IMG/VR virus record: IMGVR_UViG_3300045988_061913
Coordinates: 1-64,000 of that record
Reading direction: 5' to 3' (one strand)
DNA from: a virus
Length of the DNA: 64,000 nt
Shown: one piece after another, positions 14,892 to 41,783 of the stretch
Numbering within the stretch: the stretch's first letter is position 1
How the letters are laid out: every line of letters begins with the position of its first letter
Made by a program: the position numbers and the translations under genes
The notes under the pieces: generated by a model
What the model was told of the DNA's origin: nothing
What the model saw: the letters and a program-made list of their open reading frames with translations, nothing else
Database searches by the model: none

Positions 14892-15455
14892 TTTCTTTTT
14901 CCAGTTTTCTAATTAAAGATAAACTGGGTATGGGCCTACTTGGATTTGACAGGCGATTACAAATTATAAGGACGTGTAGAGCGCAATCTCTTTAAACGAA
15001 GAAAAAACAATAAATGCTACTTATAGCGAAGTAAGAATGGCAGCCTAAGCTGCTGGCTTGTTGGTAGACACTATTAACTAAGTCGGGTTACGGGAGAGAC
15101 CTAGAAACAGAAGAGGTTGAGTATATTGATATAATGGAGAGCTAGGCTCTAATCCTAGTAATATGCTCTTAATCAGAACACTCTAAGAGTTAGTAAGACT
15201 GAATCTCCTATGTCATAAAACAGATGGAAGATGTGAGATGTGACGAATCTCTAAAGTATCATCCCGTTCTCCAACGTAAATGGAGTGGTGGAACGTTGAC
15301 TTCGGTCAGCCCTATAGTTTGGTAGCTTGTAGATAAGCATCTAGAGAAATACTTAGTATGGACTCTTGTAAGACTTATAAAACTACCTAAATGCTAGAAC
15401 TCCCTAGCTGATATAATAAAAATGAGACGCACGTTATCCTTGTAACGAGGGTTGT

Positions 15456-15486
15456 TTGGACACGGGTTCGACTCCCGTTAGGTCCA
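15456..15486 (+). other. Isolated tRNA 3-prime-half-like fragment (T-arm ACGGG-TTCGACT-CCCGT plus acceptor strand TAGGTCC-A) at the end of a ~560 nt noncoding tract
   Basis: Canonical T-arm and 3-prime acceptor resembling the 3-prime end of the tRNA-Met at 7266-7340. No matching 5-prime half lies immediately upstream. Confidence 0.4.
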
Positions 15487-15492
15487 CATAAT

Positions 15493-21918: not shown

Positions 21919-22004
21919 GTTAACGGTTTTTAACTTTGAATTTAACACTTGTACTGTTATTATAGTAAGTTGATTAGCGGTACGTGAGTATAGCTAATTA
22001 CTAT

Positions 22005-22090
22005 GCCCGAATGGTGGAATTGGTAGACACGTCAGATTTAAGCTCTGATGCCCAGTAATGGGCGTGTGGGTTCGAGTCCCACTTCGGGTA
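22005..22090 (+). tRNA. tRNA-Leu(TAA), type II
   Basis: Acceptor GCCCGAA/TTCGGGT, anticodon arm TCAGA-TTTAAGC-TCTGA, long variable arm and T-arm GTGGG-TTCGAGT-CCCAC. Confidence 0.75.
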
Positions 22091-22172
22091 GAAACACAAG
22101 ATTGAAACCTCCACGTGGTGTGTTTTGGGTAAAGCTAATTCAATCAATTATTAATAATGTTATAAATAGTTT

Positions 22173-22793
22173 ATGATATGGGATAATTGCATTACAAATA
22201 TTATCAACAATAAAAGATACGTTGGTAAAACCCTCTTTTACTATATAGGAAAGATTTTAGGAACACTGCAAGGATTCTCGAAAAGAAAGATGTGAAAAAC
22301 GTCCATTATATGATGCTATGAATAAATATGGAGTTGAAAACTTTATAGTAGAGGAATTAGAATATGTAAAGGACGAAAACATACTTTCAGAAAGAGAGGT
22401 ATATTGGATAAAAGAGTTGGAAACTTATGGCTCCAAAGGCTATAATGCTACTAAGGGTGGTGACGGAACATAGTTATCAAGAGATAATCGAACTGTACAA
22501 TATGGGATATACTTGCAAAAAAGTTGCGGAGAAAGTGGGATGATACTGTAAGAAAAGTATTGAAAGCTCATGACATTAAAATCAGAGGTGGGTCTGCTAA
22601 GAAAATTGATCAATTTGATATGGCTGGCAATTATATATAGCACTTCTGGGGAAGAGAAGAAGCAGCTCAATGGCTTGTAGATAATGGTCTAGCAAAAACT
22701 GTTAATTGCAAAAGACATATCACCGATTGTTGCAATCATAAAATAACCCATGCTTATGGCTACATATGGAAGTACGGCATACTTCCAGAGTAA
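22173..22793 (+). pseudogene. Decayed GIY-YIG homing endonuclease (I-TevI/Seg-like), broken into at least four reading frames
   Basis: Frame 1 is MIWDNCITNIINNKRYVGKT (GIY-YIG motif). Frame 2 is RPLYDAMNKYGVENFIVEELEYV...EVYWIKELETYGSKGYNATKGG (catalytic core). Downstream frames give IELYNMGYTCKKVAEKVG and EEAAQWLVDNGLAKTVNCKRHIT...HAYGYIWKYG (NUMOD-like DNA-binding modules). The frames are separated by stop codons and frameshifts. Confidence 0.6.
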
Positions 22794-22989
22794 TGCCACT
22801 TCGGGTACTATAAAATGTTTTAATATGGAAAGATACATAAAAGAACTAGTAGAGATTTATACTAGCAATACTCTTAAGTCAAAAGAGGAGCTAGAAAGTT
22901 TGAAGAAACTTATTATGAACGCTCATAGAGCTGGTTTCATAGCTGGAGAAGAATCTATAGTAAATGTAATTGATAAGTTAACAAAATGA
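22750..22989 (+). CDS. Hypothetical protein; the true start is probably the ATG at 22825 (54 aa), because the 5-prime part overlaps the endonuclease pseudogene
   Basis: ORF in the track, with an internal ATG (MERYIKELVEIY...). Confidence 0.35.
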   Translation: MLMATYGSTAYFQSNATSGTIKCFNMERYIKELVEIYTSNTLKSKEELESLKKLIMNAHRAGFIAGEESIVNVIDKLTK

Positions 22990-23900
22990 AAGAAAGTGTA
23001 TTTTTTGGAAACGAAGGATTGACTTCTACATCTGCTAACTATTATGCTAATGTTGCGCAGGAAATGATTCAGGCTGCTACTGAGCGTCTGAATAGTGTGA
23101 GGTTCTATCAAGTGTTTGTAGCCTCTATAGGAGGTGGGGAGAAGCAATTAATGACAGTAGGTCAAACTTCCCTAGACTTTATTAAGGACGACTTAGAAAA
23201 GTCAGCGGAAATGAATAGCTTCTGTGCTTGGGTGCGGGAGGCTATTAAGAAAAAGGAGGAATTGATTTCCTATACTACTGCTTGCTCTATCGAAAAATGG
23301 GCTAGAGAAAACAATGTTGAGATTCCAGAACAACCTCAATATCCAGATTCACCTATTAAGGCGGATGAAAAAGAGGTAATGGATTCATGGGATGCCAATA
23401 AGAGAAACAAGTACCTAAGACTTGAAGCGTTTGCTTCTACTTATGGGAAATATATTCACCCAAAAGGAGCTTTTAGCAAAGCTAGAAAAGATGTTCATGC
23501 CGCTGAAAACTGCCCAATCTACAAGGAAGGAACTGGTAGAGACTTAATTCTCTATTACCAAGACCCGACTATTAAGGTAGAGGATGTTGATGCGATGTTT
23601 ATGTCTCTTCAAGATACGTATCGTTCTTATGAAAAAGAACTGAACGCTATGAAGGCAGAACTTAAAGAGACTGTAAATAAACTTGATATGACTAGAGAAA
23701 GGGAATATCAAGATAGAGTAGCAGAATTTAAGGCTGACTATGAGAGATATAATTCTAAAATGCAAGAGTTTAGAAGTCAGTTTAATAACTGGAGAACGTC
23801 TGAACAGGAGAGAATCTCTCAACTAAAGATTACCTTGCCAACGAATCTTCTAGGAATTTTCGAAGAGATTAGGAAACAAGGCGATCCTTCCTCTAAGTAA
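22986..23900 (+). CDS. Hypothetical protein (304 aa), coiled-coil-rich C-terminus
   Basis: ORF in the track. Confidence 0.55.
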   Translation: MKESVFFGNEGLTSTSANYYANVAQEMIQAATERLNSVRFYQVFVASIGGGEKQLMTVGQTSLDFIKDDLEKSAEMNSFCAWVREAIKKKEELISYTTACSIEKWARENNVEIPEQPQYPDSPIKADEKEVMDSWDANKRNKYLRLEAFASTYGKYIHPKGAFSKARKDVHAAENCPIYKEGTGRDLILYYQDPTIKVEDVDAMFMSLQDTYRSYEKELNAMKAELKETVNKLDMTREREYQDRVAEFKADYERYNSKMQEFRSQFNNWRTSEQERISQLKITLPTNLLGIFEEIRKQGDPSSK

Positions 23901-23903
23901 TTA

Positions 23904-24336
23904 GAGGAATTTTCTGTAGGAAGCTAACAATTTATATATACGTTAGGAATAATATATGAATCTTTATTTGGAAATCTAAGGATTCCTGACTTACACATTC
24001 GCTGGTCTCACAAAAATCTTGAAATTACTCTCTTATTGAGAGTCTTTGTCTTCGCTAGTGTGACCAGGTCTTCGACTTTGATTTCATCTTTGCCTGCGTG
24101 TTAGCTTCCTACTATAGCTCACCAACCAAGTTGTTGGAGGAGTTACGAAGCCCTGTTAAGGGTTTCAGCATTTGCTTCAGTTACAAGTAATCTTTAAACT
24201 TGGTGACTATTATCCCAAATTCTCAACAAGATGAAGAGGGAGGTTGGCCGACCTAATAACGGTACAAGCTCTTCGGAGTGATAGGAGTGGGGAAAGTATC
24301 TGAGAAGCACAGATACTGGAACCACTCTTTTTTTTG
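23904..24336 (+). ncRNA. Candidate structured noncoding RNA (~430 nt) ending in a hairpin plus T8 terminator
   Basis: No ORF longer than ~30 codons. There is a perfect 14-nt long-range inverted repeat (GTAGGAAGCTAACA at 23917-23930 and TGTTAGCTTCCTAC at 24110-24123) and a local hairpin CTCACCAACCAAGTTGTTGGAGGAG. The terminal stem GAGTGG/CCACTC is followed by TTTTTTTT at 24328-24335. Confidence 0.35.
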
Positions 24337-24372
24337 ATAGATAAAATGTTTAACTAATTAAAATTATTGAAA

Positions 24373-41472: not shown

Positions 41473-41783
41473 AGAAACCCTAGAGATGTAAAGTTAATGA
41501 AAAAATAAATAGAATAAACGGAATGAAAAAGTAGACTAATATAAGTGTTACAGCTACATTTAAAAATGGAGAAAAGAAAACCTTCGAAACTATAGAAGAA
41601 GCCTCAGAAGTAACTGGCTTAGAGATAAACTCTATTAAAGCTAGGGCTAATAAACCTGGCTCTGGAGCTAAATCGAAAGATGGAATTACCTTTGAATGGG
41701 CAGATCCTGCAGTTAGAAGAAGTAAGCAAGCGAAGAAAAGTAAACAAAAAGGTTCTCAATATGAGTTAGAAATAATTCATAAA

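Follow-up and report, generated by a model that had tools for sequence, protein, structure and literature searches.

Large non-coding RNAs whose structure is backed by strong covariation are rare, and the ones that have been characterised so far often proved notable in function. Bacteriophage examples associated with tRNA clusters include the stable RNAs C and D of phage T4 (species 1 and 2), which are about 140 nucleotides (nt) long and lie inside the cluster. A further arrangement is represented by the regulators TRAP and HutP, whose target repeats wrap around a ring-shaped protein oligomer and for which regularly spaced short repeats in a leader are a hallmark. GOLLD and ROOL are reported in phages near large transfer RNA (tRNA) islands (PMC12286853). 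Here, we describe a locus that can be compared with each of these. It lies within positions 1 to 64,000 of IMG/VR virus record IMGVR_UViG_3300045988_061913 (one strand, 64,000 nt, hereafter “the window”), where a stretch of about 430 nt (positions 23,904 to 24,336), which follows a gene for a 304-amino acid (aa) protein, had been annotated, from the sequence alone, as a discrete, structured and terminated RNA. The core of this initial annotation was upheld and greatly strengthened by covariation across many homologs, and the region almost certainly encodes a + strand non-coding RNA that is conserved and structured and whose family is uncatalogued. The RNA is composed of a 5′ domain carrying tandem hexamers of the form G-N-Y-U-U-N and a 3′ domain that ends in a U-tract. 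It is a new family inside a known broad kind, i.e., phage-encoded structured non-coding RNAs, and its tandem hexamer tract and obligate protein partner gene are features common to no described family.

Compared with GOLLD and ROOL, the RNA is likewise a large, multi-helix and highly conserved phage non-coding RNA that lies beside a tRNA gene cluster, carries optional modules and ends in a terminator. Unlike them, it is roughly half their size, shows no sequence or structure similarity to them by Rfam covariance models at E ≤ 10, and is most conserved in a tandem hexamer tract that is unpaired, not in a compact, pseudoknotted core; its strict linkage to one protein gene also differs from GOLLD and ROOL as described. 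Membership of the GOLLD, ROOL or OLE families was therefore rejected, as no covariance model matched at that threshold and only the phage setting, the tRNA neighbourhood and the size class are held in common. The hexamers themselves resemble the TRAP and HutP targets of the Bacillus trp and hut leaders, in which short units with a spacing of about 5–7 nt are single-stranded and followed by a terminator. Those units are (G/U)AG or UAG triplets within the short 5′ leaders of metabolic operons, where they overlap an antiterminator, whereas the G-N-Y-U-U-N unit lies in a closed domain of 200 nt on the 3′ side of a gene, and its binding by a protein is proposed by analogy. An RNA that adjoins and partly overlaps the end of a protein gene, on the same strand and with deep conservation, is shared with TnpB/IscB and omega RNA, Ro and Y RNA, ToxN-ToxI, and the retron reverse transcriptase (RT) with its msr-msd. 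Unlike these modules, the upstream protein here lacks their catalytic domains (Pfam, PHROGs, PDB and BFVD), and the locus contains no guide-like variable segments, no RT and no 34–36-nt ToxI-type repeats. Compared by description with T4 RNAs C and D, the RNA is similarly associated with a tRNA cluster, but it is three times as large, is located 1.8 kb past the last tRNA and differs in architecture.

Within the window, 23901–24366 (466 nt) is the longest stretch outside the tRNA island (which ends near 22.3 kb) without a + strand open reading frame (ORF) of at least 50 aa, as had been stated at the outset; the second-longest such gap, at 41473–41783 (311 nt), separates a primase-like gene from the next ORFs. 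The perfect 14-nt inverted repeat noted in the initial annotation is real, with GTAGGAAGCTAACA at 23916–23929 and TGTTAGCTTCCTAC at 24099–24112 (169 nt between the arms, 183 nt from start to start), although the coordinates first assigned to it (23917–23930 and 24110–24123) were off by 1 nt for the first arm and by 11 nt for the second. When the 433-nt region was shuffled 1000 times with dinucleotides preserved, a perfect inverted repeat of at least 14 nt arose in one shuffle only. The local hairpins described previously are also present, as is the closing stem (GAGTGG, 24285–24290; CCACTC, 24322–24327) followed by eight Ts (24328–24335). This stem is part of a longer, interrupted hairpin (24284–24328) that was not listed by a simple terminator scan because of its internal loop. 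Folding of the + strand yielded −130.2 kcal/mol (z = −4.69 against shuffles), and the fold of the − strand was weaker (z = −3.67).

Homologs were retrieved using the upstream 304-aa ORF (22986–23900) as an anchor. In IMG/VR, this identified 48 loci in viral genomes of about 185–190 kb, mostly from the human gut, and the element was present in all 48 of them. Its DNA is 82% identical where the anchor protein is 74% identical at the aa level, i.e., conservation of the element exceeds that of its flanks. Scanning metagenomes with an alignment of the anchor protein added 80 further loci, with protein identities down to 33%, and contigs of intermediate homologs contributed another 12. A profile search together with a covariance model recovered the full element from every locus whose anchor protein was at least about 48% identical, with sizes ranging from a minimal 338 nt (locus L210) to approximately 700 nt (L044, L155 and L209). 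More than 100 independent assemblies, drawn from different studies, contain the element in colinear form, which removes the initial concern about an assembly chimera or repeat collapse, and compensatory changes support the fold in more than 20 divergent copies.

The 5′ domain was evaluated using a structure-blind MAFFT alignment of 18 diverse copies. Overall, 92.8% of cells were paired, compared to 30–44% with slid partners, and both sides had changed in 19 of 29 pairs. The covariation score was reached by none of 500 shuffles; as the sequences are phylogenetically related, shuffle controls overstate significance, and slid-partner controls and independent pair types are more reliable. Helix P1, formed by the two arms of the inverted repeat, was 94% paired with both sides changed in 8 of 14 pairs, while the inner helix P2 was 98.1% paired (both sides changed in 7 of 9 pairs) and the P2a hairpin within its loop was 80% paired (4 of 6 pairs compensatory). 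In a set of 22 diverse copies, P1 was found in every one with a length of 13–17 base pairs (bp) and a purine-rich 5′ strand, and its compensatory variants included GUAGGAAGUCGGC/GCCGACUUCCUAC, GGUAAGAAAUCAGC/GCUGGUUUCUUACC and AUAGAAAGCCAA/UUGGCUUUCUAU. Ahead of P1, the stop codon of the anchor gene lies inside the loop of hairpin P0; therefore, the RNA structure begins within the end of the upstream gene. When divergent copies were read by eye (uncounted), nearly all of them had a hairpin that covers the stop codon or follows it closely, with stems that differ in sequence (e.g., CUUCUAA/UUAGAAG, CACCUCG/CGAGGUG and UAAGAAG/CUUCUUA). An exact 10-nt direct repeat, AGGAATTTTC, occurs at the end of the anchor ORF (23852–23861) and again between P0 and P1 (23905–23914), 53 nt apart, and may be due to chance.

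Other parts of the 5′ half vary between lineages. The hairpin between P1 and P2 is missing from the minimal copy L210, and both optional hairpins that follow P1 (24115–24166) are absent from L149, L152–L156, L207, L210 and L211. In L044 (5163–5445), L155 and L209 (2660–2955), the second of these (24147–24166) is replaced by a structured insertion of approximately 265 nt, producing the ~700-nt form of the RNA. The fold of the insertion is good (z = −4.66); two lineages share it at 98% identity, and one compensatory change is found between their copies. Although a T-arm-like GGUUUGAAUCC occurs within it, the insertion scored only 18.8 bits (E = 0.47) against the Rfam tRNA model and was negative in ARAGORN.

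Two tracts of G-N-Y-U-U-N hexamers are positioned on either side of the P2 3′ strand. Both are unpaired in the minimum free energy (MFE) fold and in RNAalifold consensus folds, so that regularly spaced short repeats in unpaired RNA, the property shared with TRAP and HutP targets, are present with a 6-nt period. Across both strands of the 64-kb window, tract 2 is the only place where three or more hexamers form an array. Tract 1 comprises three units in most relatives (GUCUUU GUCUUA GUCUUC), and near-identical genomes (the window versus L046, L003 and others; alignment columns 157–162) differ by exactly one unit, GTCTTA, with the window carrying the shorter form, which suggests replication slippage. 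Hexamer counts are thus 2–3 plus 5 units in the clade of the window, and often six in the distant clade described below.

The 3′ domain (Table 1) was analyzed in a model-guided alignment of 22 copies, in which 96.6% of cells were paired, compared to 35–44% in slid controls. Compensatory changes on both sides were observed for 16 of 38 pairs, and the observed values were reached by none of 500 shuffles. Its loops AAUCUUUAA, AAAUUCUCAACAAGAUGAAGA, ACCUAAUAA and GAAGCA are invariant or nearly so. The final hairpin, He, is a predicted intrinsic (Rho-independent) terminator, as its outer and inner stems are 100% and 92.7% paired, respectively, 9 of 14 pairs are compensatory, and a run of T5–T9 follows in every copy. 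G-U pairs are numerous in both domains and several are invariant; these would be A-C mismatches on the other strand and are workable only on the + strand, which is therefore the RNA strand. A single copy of the element was detected in the window using covariance model R1. Two candidate tertiary interactions were dropped as they are not kept in divergent copies: a pseudoknot joining AUCUU of the Ha loop to AAGAU of the Hb loop, which fails in the L152 group, and a pairing of UUCAUCUU with AAGAUGAA. In L148 (3530–3810) and L209 (2949–3111), the 3′ half of the RNA is almost identical to that of the window, and in L148 this near-identity extends into the flank beyond the RNA, at loci where the anchor protein is only 59–62% identical. 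Judged from these sequences, this implies recombination breakpoints within the RNA and mosaic exchange of 3′ domains between phage lineages.

Table 1 Features of the RNA locus and its upstream gene, in order of position within the window.
Feature	Position	Strand	Details
Anchor gene, 304-aa mostly helical protein	22986-23900	+	only constant neighbour of the RNA
Whole RNA	about 23888-24335	+	two domains, 5′ and 3′
P0, 9-bp hairpin UUCCUCUAA(GUAA)UUAGAGGAA	23888-23909	+	tetraloop holds the anchor gene's stop codon TAA, 23898-23900
P1 5′ strand, purine-rich GUAGGAAGCUAACA	23916-23929	+	pairs with 24099-24112
Lineage-specific hairpin between P1 and P2	23942-23990	+	MFE fold and alignments; sequence and length variable
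P2 5′ strand CUGGUCUCAC	24002-24011	+	pairs with 24058-24067
P2a hairpin ACUCUC(UUAUU)GAGAGU, inside the P2 loop	24027-24043	+	folds
Hexamer tract 1, GUCUUU GUCUUC	24042-24053	+	alignments
P2 3′ strand GUGUGACCAG	24058-24067	+	pairs with 24002-24011
Hexamer tract 2, GUCUUC GACUUU GAUUUC AUCUUU GCCUGC	24068-24097	+	predicted essentially single-stranded
P1 3′ strand UGUUAGCUUCCUAC	24099-24112	+	pairs with 23916-23929
Two optional hairpins	24115-24145, 24147-24166	+	compensatory changes, alignment columns 233-285
3′ domain, five helices and U-tract	24173-24335	+	model R1, 203.9 bits
Ha	24179-24188/24198-24208	+	loop AAUCUUUAA
Hb	24214-24216/24238-24240	+	encloses invariant AAAUUCUCAACAAGAUGAAGA
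Hc	24244-24250/24260-24267	+	loop ACCUAAUAA
Hd	24268-24271/24276-24279	+	tetraloop cap UUCG, GCAA or GAAA
He, terminator hairpin	outer 24284-24290/24322-24328, inner 24296-24302/24310-24316	+	conserved GAAGCA loop
U8	24328-24335	+	U-tract

A distant clade of 47 loci, in which the anchor protein is 33–38% identical, lacks the 3′ domain as judged by model R1. Here, the gene is followed by an element of about 270 nt that comprises a 5′ hairpin with UCAAUG in its loop, a long-range helix that is purine-rich, and an inner helix to which hexamers (often exactly six) are directly attached on the 3′ side, followed by another hairpin and then the closing strand and a U-run. Compensatory change was observed in 22 of 61 predicted pairs among seven sequences. 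Tandem hexamers were located 150–196 nt past the anchor gene in 33 of the 47 loci, compared to one array in the other 508 kb. A second covariance model, R2, was built from P2 and the hexamers of the window's clade only; it scored 93.6 bits on the window (23998–24098) and matched 44 of the 47 distant loci in the same place and on the same strand, 33 of them at E ≤ 0.01 (E-values of R1 and R2 being rough), with one weak stray match elsewhere. Therefore, P2 and the hexamer tract represent the ancestral core, and the 3′ domain is an addition in the clade of the window. The RNA is accordingly modular, with an ancestral 5′ core and a 3′ module that is limited to the window's clade and supplies its terminator. 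One of the 47 loci, with a short RNA composed of the 5′ core only and its partner gene, is on a megaphage-sized contig (L184, ERZ791810 NODE-1, 546,475 bp; 3861–4100). Separately, the conserved 5′-hairpin loop of the distant clade, UCUCAAUGGAUG followed by CUAAU (L165, 3890–3925, and relatives), resembles the invariant UCUCAACAAGAUG … CUAAU in the 3′ domain of the window (24220–24233) in the same order. This likeness may reflect a permuted or expanded shared module; R1 matches nothing there.

The RNA is inseparable from the gene for the upstream protein of ~300 aa, even at 33% protein identity, while the downstream genes are not conserved. When loci were found by an RNA word alone, the anchor gene was directly upstream in 49 of 51, the other two being cut off upstream, and the distance from gene end to RNA was 5–7 nt in all 49 except the insertion-bearing L054. 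The anchor protein belongs to a family of 1,162 clusters at 50% identity, has no sequence-profile match in Pfam, PHROGs or PDB, and was found in no cultured phage. Its AlphaFold2 model (pLDDT 90.5) is dominated by long helices, and a Foldseek search of BFVD returned a single match, another uncharacterised phage protein. In the clade of the window, RNase H lies downstream after 0–4 small ORFs, with a replication module further on (helicases, primase, ligase and family A polymerase). This RNase H neighbourhood is lost in the distant clade, where downstream genes differ by locus; across the family they include RNase H, an ADP-ribosylglycohydrolase, a tubulin/FtsZ homolog (just downstream in L200), an AAA/PD-(D/E)XK protein and an Rnl2-type RNA ligase (RNA ligase 2; L161, distant clade). 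At L108 (IMGVR_UViG_3300045988_057044, 2840–3460), the RNA is present, but of the anchor protein, tblastn detected just the final ~67 residues upstream, despite more sequence being available in that direction. The anchor gene of L108 may be truncated or highly diverged and, if so, would provide a natural test of whether the RNA persists without an intact partner.

No known RNA family was detected at the site using Rfam 15 (4227 models, gathering thresholds), which elsewhere in the window identified about 20 tRNAs and one transfer-messenger RNA (tmRNA). With permissive filters and E ≤ 10, the region alone gave only a 16.8-bit chance match to snoR74, and nothing was found on the element in L044 or in eight divergent or distant loci. 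The earlier rejection of a tmRNA at the site was borne out, as neither ARAGORN nor the Rfam tmRNA model found anything at 23900–24340; a candidate tag frame ending ACC UAA UAA is interrupted in L149 by an in-frame UGA, and the stem of this frame shows covariation as RNA. The suggestion of a degenerate self-splicing intron, in contrast, was not sustained. No Rfam intron model matched even at E ≤ 10, and the element lies between two complete genes rather than inside one and behaves as an intact unit under purifying selection, not as a decaying one. Group I and group II introns were likewise rejected because the upstream 304-aa ORF is complete with its own stop and homologs that lack optional parts show no exon-like junction. 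RNase P RNA was rejected as no model matched at E ≤ 10, P1 closes only the 5′ domain, and motifs of the conserved regions (GGAAAGUCC ... ACAGAA-N-GGCUUA type) were absent on reading the sequence. Coding potential was also rejected, since both short ORFs overlapping the element are broken by stops or frameshifts in several lineages and conservation is lacking for the candidate mini-ORFs located after GGAGG and at AUG 24231. We found no description of the element in the literature searched. An IMG/VR-wide structured-RNA screen reports only motifs of 29–151 nt (PMC10690425), and fragments of the RNA could already be listed in the catalogue of that study.

To search for the RNA beyond viral records, 185,579 species genomes were scanned with 18-mers. 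It was detected on only two contigs, both probable phage contigs binned as bacteria: a 186-kb contig of a “Bacteroides sp.” metagenome-assembled genome (MAG) that resembles a mis-binned phage genome, and a 29.8-kb contig binned as Clostridium sp. Additional 15-mer matches on viral contigs (L075, L079, L099, L109 and L119) were dismissed as chance matches to sequence coding for ...GDYYP.... No host chromosomal homolog of the RNA was present among the scanned species genomes, making an attP or host-derived origin unlikely.

Taken together, the region may be the gene for a structured RNA of ~430–450 nt that is stable, bound by a protein through its hexamers and partnered by the upstream protein; for this statement as a whole, we consider the chances evenly balanced. 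The RNA would be made by read-through from the upstream gene and/or by processing of the 3′ end of that transcript, and would accumulate as a stable species guarded by P0/P1 and the terminator hairpin. Its regularly spaced hexamers (about six per tract) could then offer an oligomeric RNA-binding protein a single-stranded and multivalent platform, in the way that TRAP or HutP read spaced triplets. Such a protein-binding role for the hexamer tract is, in our view, just as likely to be right as wrong. The most economical partner would be the product of the upstream gene, giving a phage-encoded ribonucleoprotein, with a host protein as the alternative; this assignment is tentative, and we would sooner expect it to fail than to hold. 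The initial description of a “phage sRNA (small RNA) or riboregulator” was thus broadly on the right lines. Several observations weigh against this account. All loci come from related phages and most were found via the protein, so the linkage may be partly phylogenetic inertia, and the adjacency of gene and RNA need not mean a physical complex, since simple co-transcription, or a role in cis within that mRNA, could also produce it. The anchor protein has no recognisable RNA-binding fold (best PDB Foldseek E = 0.075, not significant), the consensus of the hexamers is loose, and the literature searched yielded no protein known to bind it. Moreover, the apparent invariance of the 3′ domain is partly due to recombination (L148 and L209), a promoter was not found by a sigma-70-type scan (which performed at chance level and does not model Bacteroidota or phage promoters), and the 5′ end, abundance and even expression of the RNA are inferences.

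The strongest competitor, though an unlikely one, is a cis-acting regulatory region rather than a free RNA: either a protein-dependent attenuator or antiterminator, in which a hexamer-bound protein decides between termination at U8 and read-through into the downstream genes, or a 3′ untranslated region element for stability or translation termination of the upstream mRNA. A strong terminator-like hairpin just ahead of the next genes, spaced short repeats as in TRAP- and HutP-type leaders, and the location between the tRNA island and replication genes would all suit this explanation. In addition, the stop codon lies in P0, so that terminating ribosomes would melt this hairpin, and in the distant clade the U-run directly follows the P1 closing strand, so that formation of P1 could itself signal termination. 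However, a dedicated leader is unlikely because the downstream genes are not conserved across the family, and the hexamers of the window are separated from the terminator by more than 200 nt and four conserved helices. No mutually exclusive terminator and antiterminator pairing appeared in the folds (a non-exhaustive search), no TRAP or HutP domain occurs in the neighbouring proteins, and about 95 nt of near-invariant loops exceed what a stability element needs. A large “ornate” RNA acting alone, i.e., a ribozyme or RNA-only particle like GOLLD, ROOL or OLE whose loops make tertiary or intermolecular contacts, is improbable. Its size (about 430 nt, or about 700 nt with the insertion), many helices, invariant loops, GNRA and UUCG tetraloops, and phage location close to a large tRNA island are what such an RNA would show, but in addition to the failure of all Rfam models noted above, the part conserved most widely is a single-stranded repeat of low complexity rather than a compact core, the distant clade does without the 3′ domain, and no covarying loop-loop pairs were found.

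Slightly less probable again is a trans-acting RNA whose pyrimidine-rich hexamers or invariant loops would base-pair with phage or host RNAs at purine-rich sites. The conserved single-stranded stretches are long enough for seeds, and the 3′ domain contains GGGAGGU, which is complementary to the anti-Shine-Dalgarno end of 16S rRNA. Conversely, the 64-kb window shows no enrichment for the complement of the hexamer tract (3 matches with at most one mismatch versus 1.85 expected), tandem degenerate repeats are atypical seeds, and 430 nt with more than 60 conserved bp go far beyond the needs of a base-pairing sRNA. The initial annotation had also raised a replication-origin-like element, which in its fullest form would use the hexamers as iterons or produce a primer RNA processed by RNase H, as for ColE1 RNA II or T4 R-loop origins. 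The position at the start of a replication module, with 0–4 small genes between the element and RNase H downstream (in the clade of the window), the tandem repeats rich in T and a local dip in AT skew fit this idea, yet it is very unlikely: cumulative GC skew runs monotonically through the window and does not inflect at 24 kb, the predicted transcript end is an intrinsic terminator rather than a hybrid-forming site, and the RNase H linkage is gone in the distant clade while the RNA core persists. Compensatory changes, abundant G-U pairs and RNA tetraloops instead indicate selection on a folded RNA of one strand. Finally, the absence of any real feature (a chance repeat in an AT-rich spacer, a chimera or a repeat collapse), or a decayed group I intron or tmRNA, has a negligible probability, given colinearity in over a hundred assemblies, purifying selection with covariation, the rarity of such an inverted repeat among shuffles, the lack of an Rfam intron or tmRNA match and of an ARAGORN call at the site, and the in-frame stop in the tag-like frame of L149.

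Two further features were observed in the neighbouring tRNA island and its border. A tmRNA-like gene (14932–15489, +) scored 62.2 bits against the Rfam tmRNA model (gathering threshold 47) and was not called by ARAGORN; it is located inside the island directly before tRNA-Ile (15493) and spans 558 nt against a model of 374 positions, implying large insertions. Just after tRNA-Leu (22004–22091), ORF fragments overlapping in three frames (22173–22680, +) resemble a broken GIY-YIG homing endonuclease (…KRYVGKT…, …EREVYWIKELETYGSKGYNATKGGDG…) and, from their translations, are probably a decayed mobile endonuclease gene.

The signature of the RNA is both unusual and easily testable, combining tandem hexamers and a covarying scaffold with strict coupling to a widespread protein family. 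Its carriers are abundant, uncultivated human-gut phages of about 185–190 kb, with some 20 tRNAs and a tmRNA, and the labelling of some distant-clade anchor proteins as Parabacteroides or Prevotella MAG suggests that their hosts are Bacteroidales. At its most far-reaching, and with a low likelihood of being correct in full, the RNA and its helical partner protein could form an unrecognised phage ribonucleoprotein, widespread in large phages and megaphages associated with Bacteroidales, which would represent a new class of RNA-protein machine for host takeover. An oligomer of the protein or a captured host factor would read the approximately six hexamers on a rigid P1/P2 scaffold, and the 3′ domain would add a second activity, e.g., docking to the translation or transcription machinery via its invariant GGGAGGU, ACCUAAUAA and UCUCAAC loops. 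Even conservatively, covariance models R1 and R2 let the family be annotated in viromes. If the RNA and protein work together, they would provide the first functional handle on an orphan phage protein family as well as a new RNA class, and might reveal how these phages manipulate their Bacteroidales hosts.

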